NCBI GenBank assembly: GCA_002763225.1
Contig: PFAI01000052.1
Span: 1 to 11,760, forward strand
Direction: 5' to 3'
Origin: Candidatus Diapherotrites archaeon CG10_big_fil_rev_8_21_14_0_10_31_34
GTDB lineage: Archaea; Iainarchaeota; Iainarchaeia; Iainarchaeales; 1-14-0-10-31-34
Length of the DNA stretch: 11,760 nucleotides
The notes below the pieces were generated by a model, which did not search any database, was not told the DNA's origin, and saw nothing but the letters and a program-made list of their open reading frames with translations. Position numbers and translations under genes: made by a program. Of this stretch, positions 1,881 through 11,760 are shown one piece after another (the first letter of the stretch is position 1; every line of letters starts with the position of its first letter).

Positions 1881-2612
1881 ATGCCGATAAGATTTTTCAG
1901 AAGTCCTGTCATAAAAGGAGGAAAAAGAAAAACTCTGACTAAAATTGCTAATTCAAAAGCAGTTGGGCAAAAAGATCCAATTAAAATAAGCGTTATGAAC
2001 TTATAGGGCGGGAAAAATTCTCCACTAGCAATTGCAAAAAAACTTAAAATCAATCCACAAAAAGTTTTAGAAATTATTGCAAAAACAAGAACTAACCCGC
2101 AAAGTATGCCAAAAAAAATATTATAATGCTTTCAGGAGTAAACATAGAAGTTCTTCCTTTAGGAAGCATTAAAACAGAAACACAGTTTATTAATGCGCTT
2201 CCCTCTGGAATGGCAGAAACACAAAAAAAAAAGGCTTTATGAAATTTATGAAGAAAGGTTAAAGCATTCTAACAGAAAAAAGCCTGCTGAATTATTAATT
2301 TTTGCAGGATGTTTATTGCACGGAATGAAGACAAAAAGAACTATACTTCCTTTTAGCAAAGTTGAATTAGAATTAAAAAAACTATTTAATCTCAAAATTA
2401 AAACAACAGATGGAAAGTTTATAAAAGATTTAGCTGAAGAACTTAAAATTTTCTCCGAAATAGAAAAAAGAGAAATAGTAGATGCAGTAACTGGTAATAA
2501 AAAAGATTACAATTTAAAAAAAGGAATAAAACTTTGGGAAATAGAAAACAACACTAGAACAATAAACCCTCTAATCAAAGAACTCATGAAGGAAAACAGA
2601 AGAAGAAAGTAA
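1881..2612 (+). pseudogene. Disrupted ~243-aa hypothetical protein with a possible helix-turn-helix
   Basis: Reads MPIRFFRSPVIKGGKRK...SVMNL, TAG at 2004-2006, GGKNSPLAIAKKLKINPQKVLEIIAK...MPKK. A -1 shift at A8 (2111-2118) gives NIIMLSGVNIEVLPLGSIKTETQFINALPSGMAETQKK, and a +1 shift at A10 (2223-2232) joins the listed 2193..2612 ORF. Confidence 0.65.
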
Positions 2613-2640
2613 AAAATATAATAAATTCGGTTAACTAACC

Positions 2641-2655
2641 AGAAAGGTTAATAAA
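2641..2655 (+). promoter_or_regulatory. BRE-TATA-like promoter for the 2691-4561 gene run
   Basis: AGAAAGGTTAATAAA upstream of SD GAGGAG (2677-2682) and ATG 2691. Confidence 0.45.
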
Positions 2656-2690
2656 TTTGTGCGACTTTCTTTGTTTGAGGAGATGCAAAA

Positions 2691-3008
2691 ATGAAAGCAG
2701 TAATTGAAGTAAAAGAGTTAAAACAAGACTGGAGCCCGCCTTTCCAGAAAAAAACAGAATTAAGAGAAATTGAAGCAGAAGAAGGACAAAAATTTGAATC
2801 AAATGGAAACGGAGGAAATGTTTTCAGATTAGTTCAGATAGGAAAAGACAGAGTCTTAGTTGAATATGACATTACTTACACAAATAAAGGCCATGTCCAT
2901 CCAACTAACAGGCAGTTATGGGTTGGAAAAGGAGAATCAGAAAGTTTTTCTGCTTTATGGGGAAGCGACGGAGTAACAAAAACTTTAACTTTAAAAAATT
3001 TAATTTAA
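2691..3008 (+). CDS. Hypothetical protein, 105 aa, beta-rich
   Basis: Clean ORF with SD GAGGAG and host-like codon usage. No family recognised. Confidence 0.75.
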   Translation: MKAVIEVKELKQDWSPPFQKKTELREIEAEEGQKFESNGNGGNVFRLVQIGKDRVLVEYDITYTNKGHVHPTNRQLWVGKGESESFSALWGSDGVTKTLTLKNLI

Positions 3009-3030
3009 AAAAATAGGAGAGGTGAATAAA

Positions 3031-3201
3031 ATGGGATGCGGTTGTGGATGCGAACACGAAGAAGAAACAGAACATACACATAAACACTGTGGAAAACCAA
3101 TGAAATGCAAAGAAGACAAATATATTTGTGTTAAATGCGGTTTTGAAGAAGAATGTGATTGTGGACAAAAAAAAGACGATGCAGAATCACCAGATGACTA
3201 A
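3031..3201 (+). CDS. Small Cys/His-rich putative metal-binding protein, 56 aa
   Basis: Manual translation: MGCGCGCEHEEETEHTHKHCGKPMKCKEDKYICVKCGFEEECDCGQKKDDAESPDD (9 Cys, 4 His). Strong SD GGAGAGGTGA at 3016-3025. Confidence 0.8.
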   Translation: MGCGCGCEHEEETEHTHKHCGKPMKCKEDKYICVKCGFEEECDCGQKKDDAESPDD

Positions 3202-3211
3202 CTGATTCAAA

Positions 3212-3286
3212 ATGGAATTCAAACAAGTAATAATAATCAGAACTGATTTGGGAATGGGACGAGGGAAGATTGCAGCAGATTGTTAA
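3212..3286 (+). pseudogene. pth2: Orphaned 5' stub of peptidyl-tRNA hydrolase 2
   Basis: Translates as [24 protein letters not shown]. It has the canonical Pth2 N-terminal motif and is colinear with the first 22 aa of the gene at 4211. Confidence 0.88.
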
Positions 3287-4276
3287 GTATATTGGACAAA
3301 TATATTTATATGAAAATATATGATTCTAAAGAATATTTAGAAGAACAAATCAAAAATAAATCATATCTACAAATAGCCAAAGAAAACGGCATTAGTAGGT
3401 CTACAATCGGCAGAAAACTAATAAAGTTTAAATTAACAAGCCCTTCTGAATTTTGGAATGAAAAAGAAATACAAATCTTAAAAGAAAATTACTCCAACCT
3501 AGAGGGGGTACATCTTCTTTTTCCTAATCGAACAAAGTCTTCTGTTTATCATTTCGCAAATAGAATCGGGCTTAATAGATCTATAAGAAAAAGATACTAC
3601 GATACAGATGAAAACTTTTTTAAGAAATGGACAAATGAATCAAGTTACGCTTTGGGTTGGATGTTTAGTGATGGAAATGTTGCAAAAGATAGAAGAACAT
3701 TTGGTTTCCATTTACACAAAAAAGATATTAAAATATTAAAAATACTAAAAGAGCTGATGAATAGCAAACATAAAATTTTTTTGTATGGAAATGCAGCTGA
3801 ATTTAGAATACATAGTAAAAAAATGTGCGGGGATTTAATTTCTTTGGGATGTATGCCAAACAAAACTTTTAAAATAAAGTTCCCAAAAAAATTGCCTAAA
3901 AAATATTTAAATCATTTTATTAGAGGTTACTTTGATGGGGACGGCAGCATAAGTTTTAACTATCCTAATGCTATTAAAATAAAAATAGTTGGAAATAAAC
4001 AATTTATCGAAGGATTTAGAAAAAAAGTTGTTGAAATGATTAAAACAAATATGCCAAAAATGAAAAAAATGGGAAAAATCTGGCAAATAGAGTTTTATGG
4101 AGATAACGCCAGAAAGTTTTGTAGTTGGATATATAAAGACTGTGATAACTTGTTTTTAGAGAGGAAATACAAACGTTTTGAAAACCATTTGATAAAAAGA
4201 GGAGAAAAAAATGCTGTATAAACAAGCAATAGTTATTAGGACAGACCTAAGCATGAAACAAGGCAAGAGATGCAGC
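3278..4276 (+). mobile_element. Putative ~999-bp homing cassette: LAGLIDADG gene plus replacement pth2 5' end
   Basis: Removing 3278-4276 restores in-frame [31 protein letters not shown]. The exact boundaries are inferred. Confidence 0.7.
3310..4221 (+). CDS. Free-standing double-motif LAGLIDADG homing endonuclease with N-terminal DNA-binding modules
   Basis: Motifs YALGWMFSDGNV and HFIRGYFDGDGSI. HTH-like SYLQIAKENGISRSTIGRKL and Myb-like WNEKEIQILKENY...PNRT at the N-terminus. Start ATG 3310 (TTG 3280 is an alternative). No intein splicing domain. Confidence 0.9.
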   Translation: MKIYDSKEYLEEQIKNKSYLQIAKENGISRSTIGRKLIKFKLTSPSEFWNEKEIQILKENYSNLEGVHLLFPNRTKSSVYHFANRIGLNRSIRKRYYDTDENFFKKWTNESSYALGWMFSDGNVAKDRRTFGFHLHKKDIKILKILKELMNSKHKIFLYGNAAEFRIHSKKMCGDLISLGCMPNKTFKIKFPKKLPKKYLNHFIRGYFDGDGSISFNYPNAIKIKIVGNKQFIEGFRKKVVEMIKTNMPKMKKMGKIWQIEFYGDNARKFCSWIYKDCDNLFLERKYKRFENHLIKRGEKNAV

Positions 4277-4561
4277 CAAGTTGCACACGCTTCAGTTGAA
4301 GCACTGGAAAAAACCAAAACAAAGTTTCCTGACTGGGTTGAAGAATGGAGAAACACAGGAACACAAAAGGTAGTATTAAAAGTTGGTTCAGAAAAAGAAT
4401 TACTTGAATTATTTGAATCAATAAAAAAAGAAATTCCAACTGCATTAATCAGAGATGCAGGAAAAACTCAAATTCCTTCCGGAAGCAAAACATGCATTGG
4501 CATTGGGCCTGGGCCAGAAAACATAATTAACAAATACACTAAAGAGCTAAAACTACTTTAA
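4211..4561 (+). CDS. pth2: Peptidyl-tRNA hydrolase 2
   Basis: Motifs [33 protein letters not shown] and TCIGIGP. SD-like GAGGAG lies inside the end of the endonuclease gene. Confidence 0.95.
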   Translation: [116 protein letters not shown]

Positions 4562-4815
4562 TTTTTTATGAGGATACCTTTCCCATAAAGGGTTAATAAA
4601 TAAATCAATAAGATCTGGGTTGCCTTGTTTCATATAATCAAAAAATTCTGTTTTAGTTAAAAAAATTTCATGAGCATTTAATTCAGCAGTTCTTTTATAA
4701 GCAATATTTGTTGAGCTGTTTTCAATTTTTGATTCACCAAATCTTTTTCTTAACCTGCTACCATCTTTCCATTTTTTCTAAATTTGTTAACTGCTCCTGA
4801 AAATCTTTTAAACAT
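4553..4815 (-). pseudogene. Frameshifted ~87-aa hypothetical protein
   Basis: ATG 4815 gives MFKRFSGAVNKFRK. A -1 shift at the A6 run (4777-4772) continues KWKDGSRLRKRFGESKIEN...LWERYPHKKLK to TAG at 4555-4553. TATAAA lies 27-32 nt upstream. Confidence 0.5.
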
Positions 4816-4873
4816 GCAAGCTAATTAAGAAAGAAAAAGAATTTATATTGAAAGCAACAATATTCTTGCATGT
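4812..4873. promoter_or_regulatory. Probable bidirectional promoter between divergent genes
   Basis: Central TTTATA (4842-4847), flanked by the 9-bp inverted repeat ACATGCAAG / CTTGCATGT that contains both start codons. Confidence 0.4.
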
Positions 4874-5811
4874 CAATGGATTTTGAATTAATTTTAAAAA
4901 ACGGTTTTGCTTGGAGAAAAGAACAAAGAGTCTGGCTATACATTTTTTTATTGATTGTACTTGGGTTAGGGTTTCTGATTGCAAGCGCATTTTTAGTTGA
5001 AGAAGCAATAAGTGAATTCCTTGCAGCATATATTTCTTCAGGAGATATTGCAACAGCAGTTTTTTCTTTAATTGGAACAATTGTATTAATTATTTTAGCG
5101 TTTATTGGAGTTGCATTTATCCAAAGCTTTATTTACACTTTAATTTTATTGAAAGGAATGAATTTTTATAAAATGAAAACAATTTCTTTTGGCTTGATTG
5201 AATTCATTAAACTATTAGTGTTATACTTTTTTTCTTTTATTGCAGCAACAATTTCTTACTATAACAAAAAATTTTTATTGTTTTTTGTCGGATTAATTGC
5301 AGTATGGCTTTCTGGTTTTGCGGCATTATTTGTTGTTCCTGCATTAGGCGCATTATTGATGATTGTCGGAATTGTTTTATGGATCCCATATTTTTTCATT
5401 ATATTATATAATTCTTTCAGGCTTTCAATGAGCCCGTTTGTTTTTTTAGAACAAGGAAATATTTTTGGTTCATTAAAAAAATCTTATGAAATTACTGCAG
5501 GAAAAGTAATTGAAATTTTTCTTGCAATATTAATTGTAAGCGTAATCATGGGAATAATTGTTTTTATTGCAAACCAATTAGGGCAGGCAATGCTTTATGC
5601 AGTTTTCCCTGAATTAAACGGATTACAGGAAATGGCTTTACAGTCAGAAAGCAACCCATTAATGGTTTTAGGATTAATTAATTCTTTGCTTGAAAACGCA
5701 GCAGAAATGATTATTGTCGGGGGAATACTTTCAACAATAGTTAATGCAATAATGAATGCTTTTTCTGCTTACTCTTATGCAGGCATTTATTTCCAGGTAA
5801 AGAAAAAATAA
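4870..5811 (+). CDS. Polytopic membrane protein (resembles GPDPase membrane-anchor-like families)
   Basis: About 7 hydrophobic segments and the C-terminal pattern PFVFLEQGNIFGSLKKSYEITAGK. Confidence 0.75.
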   Translation: MSMDFELILKNGFAWRKEQRVWLYIFLLIVLGLGFLIASAFLVEEAISEFLAAYISSGDIATAVFSLIGTIVLIILAFIGVAFIQSFIYTLILLKGMNFYKMKTISFGLIEFIKLLVLYFFSFIAATISYYNKKFLLFFVGLIAVWLSGFAALFVVPALGALLMIVGIVLWIPYFFIILYNSFRLSMSPFVFLEQGNIFGSLKKSYEITAGKVIEIFLAILIVSVIMGIIVFIANQLGQAMLYAVFPELNGLQEMALQSESNPLMVLGLINSLLENAAEMIIVGGILSTIVNAIMNAFSAYSYAGIYFQVKKK

Positions 5812-7421: not shown

Positions 7422-7907
7422 ATGAAAATAGGGAACGAAACCAGCATAATAGAAATAATAGAAAAAATGGTCAAAGAAGGAAGACCCCAAAAAGAAATAC
7501 TCAAAGAACTGACAAGCTTAGGAATAAAAGAAGAACAAGCAAGAAAACTGCTTTTATTAGGAGAAGCAGACACTTTTGCTTTGCTGAAAAAAGAAATACA
7601 AAAAATAGTCAAAGAAGACATGAAAGCAGAAGAAGAAATCTTCAGAAAACTGGTTGTAGAAATAGTTAAAGAAGAAGAAAAAGAAGTTGAAAAAAGATTA
7701 TCACAAAAATTAATTGAATTAAGAGAAGTGTTAGATGAAAAAATAAAAGAAGAAGAAAAAACAGAAAAAAAACAAACTAAAATGAAGGAATTAATGAAAT
7801 TATTAAGCCATCCTGAAACAACTCACGGAATCAGATTTGATTTTGAATCAGAAACACTAAAAAAAGAAAAAAAGAAAACAAACTCAATTAAAGAGGTAAA
7901 AGTTTAG
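7422..7907 (+). CDS. Hypothetical soluble coiled-coil protein, paralog of the next gene
   Basis: Shares an N-terminal ~64-aa domain with the next ORF and has an E/K-rich helical tail. Confidence 0.8.
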   Translation: MKIGNETSIIEIIEKMVKEGRPQKEILKELTSLGIKEEQARKLLLLGEADTFALLKKEIQKIVKEDMKAEEEIFRKLVVEIVKEEEKEVEKRLSQKLIELREVLDEKIKEEEKTEKKQTKMKELMKLLSHPETTHGIRFDFESETLKKEKKKTNSIKEVKV

Positions 7908-7916
7908 GTGAAAAAA

Positions 7917-8609
7917 ATGGTTCAGACAAGAGAAGCAAGCATAATTGAAACCATTTCAAAAATGGTCAGAGAAGGAAAAAACGAAAAAAAAATTGTCGCT
8001 GAACTAAAAATTTTAGGAATAAACGAAGAACAGGCAAGAAAACTGCTTTTATTGGCTGAAGCAGACACATTTGATTTGCTTAAAGCAGAAATAAAAAAAA
8101 TTGTTAGACAGGATTTAGCTGCAGAAGAACCATGGATAAAAGAATTCATTAAAACTGAAGTGGAAATAGAACAAAAAAAAGTTTCACAAGACTTAATGAG
8201 AGAAATGAGCTCTGATTTAGATGGATACAAGCAAAGAACAAACAAAGGAACAGAAGAATTCAAGGACATGCTGTTAAGCAAAATGAATATTTTTCAGACA
8301 AAAATTAATTCAAATATAATGGCTTTAACCGGAATAATAGGAAAATTAAAAGATTCAACAGTTAAAATAGATGAAAAAGTTGATTTAGCTCAACTAGATT
8401 TAACTGAACTAAGATTAAAAGGAACAGCAAAAAAACTGCAATTGCTAAGGTTTACTTTAATTGGGGCAGGAGTCATTTTTGGTTTTCTTGCATTCTGGTT
8501 TGCTTTAATTAACACTTCAGGCGGAATAACTGATACAGGAACAGTTGCAATCTTTTTCGGCATGATAATAGTTTCTTTAGCCTTACTATTTATGGCTTCA
8601 AAAACATAA
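7917..8609 (+). CDS. Hypothetical coiled-coil protein with two C-terminal transmembrane helices
   Basis: SD AGGTGA before ATG 7917, the same N-terminal domain as the upstream gene, and two hydrophobic segments at the C-terminus. Confidence 0.8.
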   Translation: MVQTREASIIETISKMVREGKNEKKIVAELKILGINEEQARKLLLLAEADTFDLLKAEIKKIVRQDLAAEEPWIKEFIKTEVEIEQKKVSQDLMREMSSDLDGYKQRTNKGTEEFKDMLLSKMNIFQTKINSNIMALTGIIGKLKDSTVKIDEKVDLAQLDLTELRLKGTAKKLQLLRFTLIGAGVIFGFLAFWFALINTSGGITDTGTVAIFFGMIIVSLALLFMASKT

Positions 8610-9872: not shown

Positions 9873-11267
9873 ATGGGAAAAACTTACATTAATGTAGTTA
9901 AATATAATATTAAAGCAAAATTTGAAGTCAAAGGACTAGTAGATAAACATGACATAATTGGCGCAGTTTTCGGCCAAAGCGAAGGATTAATTGGAGAAGA
10001 CCTTGATTTAAGAGAACTCCAAAAAAACGGTAAAGTAGGAAGAATAGATATTTTTCCTGAACCAAGAGACGGAAACACAATTGGAAGCTTATTGATTCCA
10101 TCTTCTTTGGATATGGTGCAGACTTCAATTCTGGCAGCAGCAATAGAGTCAATTGAAAAAGTAGGCCCATATGAATCAAAATTTGAAGTAGACCAAATTG
10201 AAGATACAAGAACAAACAAAAGAAATGAAATCAAAAACAGAGCAAAAGAATTATTAAGCAAATTCTTAAAAGACAGTACTCCTTCAACTGAAATGGCAGA
10301 CGAAGTAAGAGAAGCAACAAGAGCATCAGAAATAAGCCAATGGGGGCCGGAAAACCTGCCTTCAGGACCAGAAATAGAAAAAGAAGAAGAAATAATTTTA
10401 GTTGAAGGAAGAGCAGATGTATTAAATTTGCTTAGAAACAGCGTGAAAAATGTTGTTGGAATGAATGGCTCAAAAATACCTCATTCAATTATTGGTTTAT
10501 GCAACAGAAAAACAATTACTTTGTTTTCTGACGGAGATAGAGGAGGAGAATTAATTCAAAGACAATTAATGCAGGCAACAAAAGTTGATTTTGTTGCAAG
10601 AGCTCCTGATGGAAAAGAAGTAGAAGAACTATCAAAAAAAGAAATTACAATGGCTTTAAGGAAAAGAATTCCTACAACAGAAACAAATAGGAGAACTCCA
10701 CAAACTTTTTTGAATTCAAGAAGACCAATAAGAACAACAGAATTTCAGCCAAGAAACAACTTCAATGACAGAAATAGTTTTAATAACAGAAACAATTTCA
10801 ATGACAGAAGAACTGATATAAGGCCTCAAAGAAGTTTTGAAAACAACAGATTTAACAGAGATAATTCTTTTTCTAGACCAACTGAAAGACATTTTAGCAG
10901 AACTCCTCAAAGAGATTTTAGTAGATCAGCTCCAAGAGAAAGCTTTATCAGAGAAAACCCTAATCCAATTCTTTCAATTCCTCCAACAGAAGAAGAAAAA
11001 ACAAAATTTAATTCAGTAATGAATTCAGTTAAAGGAAAAATGGAAGCAGTAATTCTTGATTCACAAGGAAAAGAATTAAAAAGAACTAAAATAAGAGAAT
11101 TAGTTCCAGTACTAAAAGAACAAAAAGAAGTTGATTCAATAGTATTAGACGGAATAATAACCAAAAGACTTTTAGACGAAGCAAAAAACCATTCAATCAA
11201 ATTCATTATCGGAGTAAAAAAAGGCAAAATAGAAGAAACACCAGAAATAAAAACTTTGGTTATGTGA
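9873..11267 (+). CDS. dnaG: Archaeal DnaG (TOPRIM-domain, exosome-associated protein)
   Basis: DIIGAVFGQSEGLIGEDLDLRELQKNGKVGRI, TOPRIM motifs ILVEGRADV and DGDRGG, and DGIITKRL. SD GGAAGGTG. Confidence 0.96.
   Translation: MGKTYINVVKYNIKAKFEVKGLVDKHDIIGAVFGQSEGLIGEDLDLRELQKNGKVGRIDIFPEPRDGNTIGSLLIPSSLDMVQTSILAAAIESIEKVGPYESKFEVDQIEDTRTNKRNEIKNRAKELLSKFLKDSTPSTEMADEVREATRASEISQWGPENLPSGPEIEKEEEIILVEGRADVLNLLRNSVKNVVGMNGSKIPHSIIGLCNRKTITLFSDGDRGGELIQRQLMQATKVDFVARAPDGKEVEELSKKEITMALRKRIPTTETNRRTPQTFLNSRRPIRTTEFQPRNNFNDRNSFNNRNNFNDRRTDIRPQRSFENNRFNRDNSFSRPTERHFSRTPQRDFSRSAPRESFIRENPNPILSIPPTEEEKTKFNSVMNSVKGKMEAVILDSQGKELKRTKIRELVPVLKEQKEVDSIVLDGIITKRLLDEAKNHSIKFIIGVKKGKIEETPEIKTLVM
10752..10940 (+). 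repeat. Degenerate coding tandem repeats in the DnaG linker
   Basis: Three 18-nt units (RNNFND / RNSFNN / RNNFND, 10752-10805) and three 24-nt units (FSRPTERH / FSRTPQRD / FSRSAPRE, 10869-10940). Confidence 0.7.
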
Positions 11268-11336: not shown

Positions 11337-11409
11337 GGGCTCGTAGTTCAGGGGTTAGAACGCCACGTTTACAACGTGGAGGTCGAGAGTTCGATTCTCT
11401 CCGAGCCCA
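11337..11409 (+). tRNA. tRNA-Val(UAC), intronless, CCA not encoded
   Basis: Acceptor GGGCTCG/CGAGCCC, D arm GTTC/GAAC, anticodon arm CCACG-TTTACAA-CGTGG, T arm GAGAG-TTCGATT-CTCTC, discriminator A. Confidence 0.97.
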
Positions 11410-11410
11410 A

Positions 11411-11760
11411 TTATTTTAATAATTGCTCAGCTTCAGTTGCACGCAACATTATTCCTGTTTTTTTGAAGTGTTTCCATTTAACTAAATGTTTGGAATTACT
11501 GCTTCCTATTTCTTCAAAAAATTTCGTCAATTTTTTTTCGCCATAAAAATAAATATTATCTCCAGAAACACCAATAGAAAAATTTAGTTGCTTGTAAGCT
11601 CTTATTGCAGAAGACATTAATTCAGGGATAGTTATAGTCAAACAATACATTATTTTTGTATGCTGGTGCGGACAAACAGTTCCATCTGTGTCTGAAAGCC
11701 CTCTTAAACAAGCTCTAAATAATTTATTGTCATTGAAATAATAATCAGGGATCTTTGCTT
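11411..11760 (-). CDS. LAGLIDADG homing endonuclease-like protein, C-terminal part (starts beyond the window)
   Basis: Frame is open to the window edge: AKIPDYYFNDNKLFRACLRGLSDTDGTV...KFFEEIGSSNSKH. RGLSDTDG is a LAGLIDADG motif. Confidence 0.85.
   Translation of the reverse strand, partial: AKIPDYYFNDNKLFRACLRGLSDTDGTVCPHQHTKIMYCLTITIPELMSSAIRAYKQLNFSIGVSGDNIYFYGEKKLTKFFEEIGSSNSKHLVKWKHFKKTGIMLRATEAEQLLK

Follow-up and report, generated by a model that had tools for sequence, protein, structure and literature searches.

The window, meaning the whole 11,760-nucleotide (nt) stretch that was analysed, is the complete contig PFAI01000052.1 of Candidatus Diapherotrites archaeon CG10_big_fil_rev_8_21_14_0_10_31_34 (assembly GCA_002763225.1), whose genome of 1.04 Mb is 81% complete and is labelled G000 in the comparisons below. 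Its subject of interest is the gene pth2, which is present there as a short 5′ stub, followed by a putative LAGLIDADG homing endonuclease gene in another frame and then by an intact pth2. The cassette responsible sits between pth2 codons 22 and 23, at the DNA coding for GK(I/T)AA-Q..HA, where the hyphen marks the junction. Its parts and their surroundings are as follows.

3212..3286, + strand: pth2 5′ stub: 22 codons of native type, followed by 2 foreign ones and a stop
3278..4276, + strand: inserted cassette, 999 nt relative to the uninterrupted allele, made up of stub tail, spacer, endonuclease gene and replacement pth2 5′ end
3287..3309, + strand: spacer of 23 nt from the stub stop to the endonuclease ATG
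3310..4221, + strand: putative LAGLIDADG endonuclease gene, free-standing and double-motif, 303 amino acids (aa), from Pfam LAGLIDADG_3, homologue alignment and structure model
4200..4204, + strand: AGGAG ribosome-binding motif for the rebuilt pth2, within the endonuclease 3′ end
4211..4276, + strand: replacement pth2 5′ end of 22 codons, carried by the cassette
4268..4276, + strand: recoded codons 20-22, AGA TGC AGC, reading RCS (native T/I-A-A), directly 5′ of the junction
4277..4561, + strand: native pth2 core, Q23 to stop (Pfam PTH2)

The stub open reading frame (ORF) starts with the ATG at 3212 and runs for 24 codons to a stop at 3284-3286; it occupies the native place of pth2, behind an upstream Cys-rich ORF, in keeping with the operon position ascribed to it in the first-pass annotation, which was made from the letters alone. 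Full-length pth2 (4211-4561, 116 codons) has its ATG exactly 999 nt past that of the stub, and an ungapped alignment of the two 22-codon starts gives identities of 12/22 aa and 38/66 nt, all five IRTDL codons being synonymously different. Each of these claims, the other-frame LAGLIDADG ORF included, was re-derived. A DNA identity of 38/66 is only a little above background in a window of 30% GC, where the next best 66-nt match is 34/66, and the homology of stub and gene is secured by comparison with relatives, not by DNA identity alone: the stub shares 14-15 of 20 residues with the native N-termini found in four congeners that lack the endonuclease (G001, G002, G004 and G005), and the working copy shares 11-13 of 20. 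At the left edge of the cassette the stub homology stops after codon ~21-22 (in G000, G003 and G187), and at its right edge the sequence is host-like from Q23 on. The claim that the working gene has its ribosome-binding site inside the endonuclease 3′ end also held, with the AGGAG at 4200-4204 lying 6 nt from the pth2 ATG and a purine-rich tract at the equivalent place in G003, G022, G170 and G141; the endonuclease stop (4219-4221) overlaps the start of pth2.

As for the downstream ORF, its match to Pfam PTH2 (PF01981) has E 3.8e-40 and covers 115/115 profile positions, and G18, K19, Q23, H26, A27 and D82 are invariant in 11 Pth2 sequences that include three occupied alleles, i.e., alleles with the endonuclease. 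The motif Lys is reported to be catalytic in work on the Pth2 of S. solfataricus, which a literature check did not confirm: the ‘Lys18’ matches in PMC3488237 proved to be Lys182 of bacterial Pth1. What, then, is altered beside the junction? GKIAA had been regarded in the first-pass annotation as canonical and GKRCS as atypical, and this is borne out by the survey described below: IAA follows GK in 35 of 67 endonuclease-free alleles, and RCS does so in none of the 67. Of the 14 occupied alleles, 10 have C as the middle one of the three residues, 2 have S, one has G and one has A; of the 67 that are endonuclease-free, 53 have A there, 8 have C, 3 have G, and V, I and S occur once each.

The eight endonuclease-free alleles with Cys, which are in other families, read GK-x-C-A-Q (G133, G137, G145, G166, G181, G192, G188 and G031; loci L077, L079, L083, L091, L098, L100, L103 and L029), and neither an endonuclease remnant nor a stub was found within ~1.3 kb upstream of them. 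They may be resistant variants, footprints of loss or the ancestral source of the cassette 5′ end.

The endonuclease

ORF calling opens the endonuclease frame, which differs from that of the stub, at TTG 3280, while alignment with six homologues favours ATG 3310. Pfam LAGLIDADG_3 matches at 26.0 bits (cut-off 22.5; E 1.1e-5) over residues 201-271 only, and LAGLIDADG_1 under its cut-off. The motifs Y.LGW..SDG and F.RG.F.GDG are both present, and in the alignment of seven endonucleases, whose homologues are 48-78% identical to the window protein, D121/G122 and D211/G212 are invariant in 7/7. In an AlphaFold model with a predicted local distance difference test (pLDDT) score of 69, two N-terminal helix-turn-helix-like three-helix bundles are followed by αββαββα twice, the second motif helix being poorly modelled. 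Foldseek gave 39 matches in the PDB at E ≤0.001, of which those listed are almost all LAGLIDADG enzymes, the best being I-Tsp061I (2dch, E 2.7e-6) and I-DmoI (2vs7, E 9.5e-4), at template modelling scores of only 0.2-0.36. From sequence and model together, the product is predicted to be a monomeric two-motif LAGLIDADG homing endonuclease, and we infer its endonuclease activity and its cleavage site.

A second LAGLIDADG-like ORF, at 11411-11758 on the − strand with the motif LRGLSDTDG, is cut off by the end of the contig and lies 1 nt away from a gene for tRNA-Val (11337-11409, +). Its Pfam LAGLIDADG_3 match (E 0.0054) is under the cut-off, and it is not close kin of the pth2 endonuclease (BLASTP E 0.049).

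Occupied and empty alleles, and the history of the two gene parts

A survey was made of 196 genomes of the order, in 187 of which pth2 was found. Relatives of the endonuclease at E ≤1e-15 occur in 18 of the 196, and in nine they are close (at least 47% identity, or fragments of such copies), namely G000 and G003, which are of the same genus, with G170, G022, G187, G141, G148, G135 and G156, five families being represented. The close endonuclease is directly 5′ of pth2 in 9/9 genomes, which puts the share of occupied alleles in the order at ~5% (9 of the 187 genomes that have pth2); the other nine genomes have a distant paralogue on a different contig or far from pth2. Together with five further public contigs the occupied set comes to 14, and in 14/14 the junction is before the Q of GK...Q..H. 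By group, occupancy is two of six species in the genus, 4/38 in family f10, 1/3 in f3 and 1/1 in f15, and in f30 G187 is the sole genome with a close homologue. A scan of genome contigs yielded a ‘Woesearchaeota’-labelled contig with an internally deleted copy of the endonuclease 5′ of pth2, and of metagenome relatives with at least 44% identity 6/6 are 5′ of pth2, one being the window's own organism and one probably G187. Among distant relatives (≤37% identity; 74 metagenome and 80 viral loci) none of 154 has pth2 within 2 kb, and this holds for the 80 viral relatives taken by themselves (28-40% identity). Viral pth2 was looked for by a profile scan based on short peptide patterns, which may miss divergent phage pth2, and the three loci found are all uninterrupted and read GKIAA/GQ.

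The endonuclease is intact in G000, G170, G022, G187, G141 and G156 and decayed in L065 (internal deletion), L123 (C-terminal half only) and G135 (stops and frameshifts), and decayed beside intact copies fit the usual cycle of invasion, decay and loss. L123 is a contig from the metagenome that also yielded L115 and in which the window's sequence occurs; it comes from a different organism, has the decayed endonuclease 5′ of pth2, and its junction reads GKLSV-M. As to G156 (L052, 1150-2415, −), its endonuclease ORF has no stop before pth2, which leaves an open frame of 421-430 aa, and an endonuclease-Pth2 fusion protein is possible.

Other occupied alleles with the same junction, and empty alleles among relatives, were among the things to be sought according to the first-pass annotation. 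The former are the nine genomes of five families and the five further contigs; the latter were found within the genus itself, where pth2 is uninterrupted in four of six species and starts MEFKQ...GKTAA/V-Q, i.e., with the stub type and not with the MLYKQ...GKRCS of the window's working copy, a start that no congener free of the endonuclease has. Stubs resemble the native start of the host lineage, that of G187 being like the f30 native start and that of G170 like the f3 native start across the first 14 residues. Their state varies: G000, G003 (MEFKQVIVIRTDLKMQLGKIAVNF, then a stop) and G187 have the stub as an intact ORF, in G170 it has diverged in part, in G022 a relic with a frameshift is left and in G156 a fragment, and none was seen in G141 or G135, where it was looked for. 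A motif scan of 77 pth2 loci, which did not cover the G003 stub, located on a separate contig, detected a stub-like sequence 5′ of pth2 in the same orientation at 3 of the 10 loci with the endonuclease and at none of the 67 that lack it.

Do the two parts of the working gene have one history? Codons 1-22 and 23-116 were compared, as had been proposed, by identity contrasts in place of a formal tree, since 20 residues carry too little signal for one. The last 20 residues before Q23 were set against the rest of the protein in within-family pairs, and as these pairs are not independent the figures are descriptive. Between endonuclease-free alleles the N-terminus is as similar as the core (0.74 and 0.73; 283 pairs) and so it is between occupied ones (0.72 and 0.72; 7 pairs), whereas occupied against endonuclease-free gives 0.60 for the N-terminus and 0.73 for the core (101 pairs), with the same sign in 4/4 families and a drop that persists without the last three residues (0.62 versus 0.76). 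For the eight occupied alleles comparable without indel artefacts (ungapped core comparisons of G156 and L065 are indel-distorted and were left out), the nearest neighbour of the core is an endonuclease-free allele of the same family, as with G000 and the endonuclease-free G005 at 0.89 or G135 and G146 at 0.92. In f10 four occupied N-termini are mutual nearest neighbours at 0.85, while for their cores the closest alleles are various endonuclease-free ones. These comparisons of sequence show a history of the first ~20 residues of occupied alleles that is separate from that of the core, and the compositional break in G022 between codons ~23 and 39, to which we now turn, agrees with them.

In the GC-rich G022 the GC content at third codon positions is 0.61-0.66 for the genes on either side and for the core of pth2, but 0.23-0.35 across the relic of the stub, the endonuclease gene and pth2 codons 1-23, the return to host composition falling between ~codon 23 and codon 39. 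The right edge of the foreign block thus maps to the predicted junction, with a short co-conversion tract, and from this composition it follows that the replacement 5′ end arrived together with the endonuclease. Identities of the endonuclease are also incongruent with those of a neighbouring housekeeping GTPase: G000 and G022 are 58% identical in the former and 43% in the latter, and G141 and G156, of the same family, 43% and 55%. Both the compositional island and this incongruence are evidence of horizontal transfer. Within the genus the flanking genes, all 71-84% identical, do not resolve relations, and gain is there indistinguishable from loss.

Proposed mode of spread of the cassette, and rival explanations

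It is probable that the locus is that of a free-standing LAGLIDADG homing endonuclease gene inside the chromosomal pth2 of Iainarchaeum-like DPANN archaea, forming a non-splicing cassette. That a selfish cassette splits pth2 and supplies it with a new 5′ end was the core of the first-pass annotation, and support for it now comes from recurrence, empty alleles, separate histories and the compositional island in G022. The enzyme would cut uninterrupted pth2 at the DNA encoding GK(I/T)AA-Q..HA, and the break would be repaired from an occupied allele, homology being provided by the stub on the left and by the pth2 core on the right. As repair would copy the endonuclease and the new 5′ end together, the essential gene would never be lost. 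The recoded codons 20-22 (xCA, RCS or LSS, not xAA) would keep the rebuilt gene uncut, and its translation would be coupled to that of the endonuclease, whose ORF overlaps its start. Where it is intact, the stub may serve the endonuclease as a leader ORF.

Several points weigh against this explanation. The target site is read from the insertion coordinate alone; the structure model is of only moderate quality (pLDDT 69); and a sequence-profile search of the PDB found no chain below E 0.18, the best being an intein endonuclease domain. Between G000 and G003 the endonucleases are 76-78% identical, about as much as the flanking genes (78-79%), so that within the genus vertical descent with losses may hold. 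The uninterrupted allele was not seen in the contigs of four sequencing runs, none of which joins the stub to Q23, contigs being prone to drop rare variants, and the pairs behind the contrast of N-terminus and core are, as said, not independent. The Cys in 8 of 67 endonuclease-free alleles means that this residue is not exclusive to occupied ones. Working N-termini are also lineage-like (L.QYI..N in f10, M[FY]TQV in f30), and hence one cassette N-terminus has not simply spread across families; they may have been re-formed or homogenised locally.

Foremost among the rivals, though unlikely, is an old immobile insertion that entered once, in the ancestor of the order, and has since undergone vertical descent and many losses, with the endonuclease as a neutral passenger or domesticated. 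In keeping with it, the divergence of the endonuclease (G000 versus G003, G170, G022, G187 and G141: 76, 61, 58, 49 and 50%) is roughly parallel to that of the pth2 core for the same pairs (78, 61, 65, 56 and 51%), and the lineage-like N-termini and the failure to see an uninterrupted allele in run contigs can be counted on the same side. However, the cassette of G022 has a composition foreign to its host, G141 and G156 are less alike in the endonuclease than in the GTPase, and the catalytic residues are invariant in all 7 sequences; moreover, loss by deletion between the repeats would retain the recoded right end, and the four uninterrupted congeners read canonical GKTAA/V. The host-like N-terminal copies would also suit a reading in which the pth2 5′ end was first duplicated locally in tandem and a mobile endonuclease, unrelated and without the pth2 coding sequence as its target, landed later between the copies, yet this is a good deal less probable: the codon at which the junction falls is the same across 5 families, a stub-like motif is upstream of none of the 67 endonuclease-free loci, as duplication without the endonuclease would leave it, and the new 5′ end of G022 shares the foreign composition of the endonuclease.

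Could the stub instead be a real exon 1 and the element one that is spliced, whether as a group I or II intron, an archaeal bulge-helix-bulge intron or an intein? The known archaeal LAGLIDADG enzymes are intron- or intein-encoded, and I-Tsp061I, the top structural match, is intron-encoded. Against this, the endonuclease is read in a different frame and follows a stop, and the stub is frameshifted in G022 or decayed or absent in G141, G156 and G135 beside an intact pth2, which is why it is considered dispensable. Rfam at E ≤1 returned no intron, only a tRNA and two chance matches; pairing across the junctions, at -14.8 kcal against a shuffle mean of -13.9, was equalled by 34% of shuffles; and the bulge-helix-bulge search gave one crude match, which is beyond the stub stop. 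A ribozyme fold, a bulge-helix-bulge and an in-frame splicing domain were all looked for at the locus and not found. Splicing is very improbable, and the earlier view of the element as non-splicing is upheld. Least credible of all is an assembly chimera or binning artefact, also a concern of the first-pass annotation, for which only the copy in G003 gives any opening, as it is on two contig ends whose overlap is mismatched. The layout recurs in 14 genomes or contigs of different projects, and Logan contigs from several runs span both junctions of the window, which disposes of a chimera: a 6516-nt contig of X1, a run that is possibly the window's source, covers 2200-5400 with 0 mismatches, a 2182-nt contig of X4 covers 2225-4406 with 1, and independent contigs of X5 and X6 bridge the junctions in part.

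A joint of 3013 to 5258 in X5 (side 21) was set aside as noise from another organism. In G003 the cassette is split between the end of L032 and the start of L045, which overlap by ~80 nt with mismatches, TAG against AAG inside the endonuclease among them, and this suggests strain heterogeneity at the locus.

If the self-repairing selfish cassette is accepted, a more speculative extension, which we hold only tentatively, would see in it a translational relay of three cistrons and, at a gene essential for translation, one party to an arms race. The gap between stub and endonuclease ATG is kept at 23 nt or 0 nt in four lineages (23 nt in G003 and G170 as in the window; in G187 the stub stop abuts the endonuclease ATG), and an intact stub, as leader ORF, may take up ribosomes at the native start signal of pth2 and pass them to the endonuclease, from whose overlapping stop they would go on to the rebuilt pth2. 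As for the arms race, the endonuclease-free alleles with Cys would represent resistance, or else footprints of recombination between the 66-nt repeats that deleted the endonuclease.

Elsewhere in the window, a PemK/MazF-like toxin ORF (109-438, −) overlaps a small antitoxin-like ORF (416-694, −) with weak DUF7557/VapB matches, the pair being directly downstream of a NurA nuclease gene (694-1842, −). The adjacent ORFs 7422-7907 (+) and 7908-8609 (+) are tandem paralogues with similar N-terminal ~70 residues (…EEQARKLLLL.EADTF.LLK.EI.KIV…), the latter having a C-terminal membrane segment, and a Toprim-domain (DnaG-like) protein (9873-11267, +) has a long low-complexity insert rich in Asn, Arg and Phe at ~residues 270-340.

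Known systems and significance

The significance of the pth2 cassette would be that a selfish endonuclease can colonise an essential single-copy cellular gene without intron or intein, by bringing a spare gene end and translation signals. DPANN archaea have reduced genomes and few known mobile elements, and, as far as the literature was searched, free-standing LAGLIDADG elements now extend to their protein-coding genes. Empty, occupied, decayed and possibly resistant alleles provide a natural series for study of the homing cycle, and the enzyme, with its added helix-turn-helix-like domains, is a candidate for a new meganuclease specificity. There is also a practical aspect, the risk that in annotation the stub is miscalled or the start of pth2 is.

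Among the archaeal LAGLIDADG enzymes known to date, I-Tsp061I and I-DmoI have the same enzyme fold as that predicted for the pth2 endonuclease, but sit in spliced rRNA introns, whereas the latter is without an intron and has ~100 additional N-terminal residues. Closer in lifestyle are the Seg and Mob enzymes of T4-like phages, which home without an intron by double-strand-break repair with co-conversion of flanks; mobE reportedly splits nrdA in Aeromonas phage Aeh1. Like the pth2 endonuclease they are free-standing, in or between essential genes and without splicing. However, they are of GIY-YIG or HNH type, are usually intergenic or leave two working gene halves, and do not supply the replacement gene end that the pth2 cassette does.

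For an archaeal chromosome no report of such a layout was found in the full-text literature, subscription journals and supplements not being covered; the one paper of seeming relevance that names both homing endonucleases and peptidyl-tRNA hydrolase does so in separate places. Nevertheless, fungal mitochondria provide analogous precedents: LAGLIDADG ORFs there have C-terminal duplicates of atp6 and cob next to them (PMC6279837), and partial gene duplications occur beside free-standing endonuclease genes (PMC6279837, PMC7487136). They resemble the pth2 cassette in having a non-intronic endonuclease in or beside an essential gene of which there is one intact copy and a pseudo-fragment. The fungal cases are organellar, are mostly 3′ duplications and are described as by-products or pseudogenes; the pth2 cassette, in contrast, is on an archaeal chromosome and has a 5′ duplicate with its own ribosome-binding site and an overlapping stop and start, with recoding of the codons beside the junction, and with that one junction used across five families.

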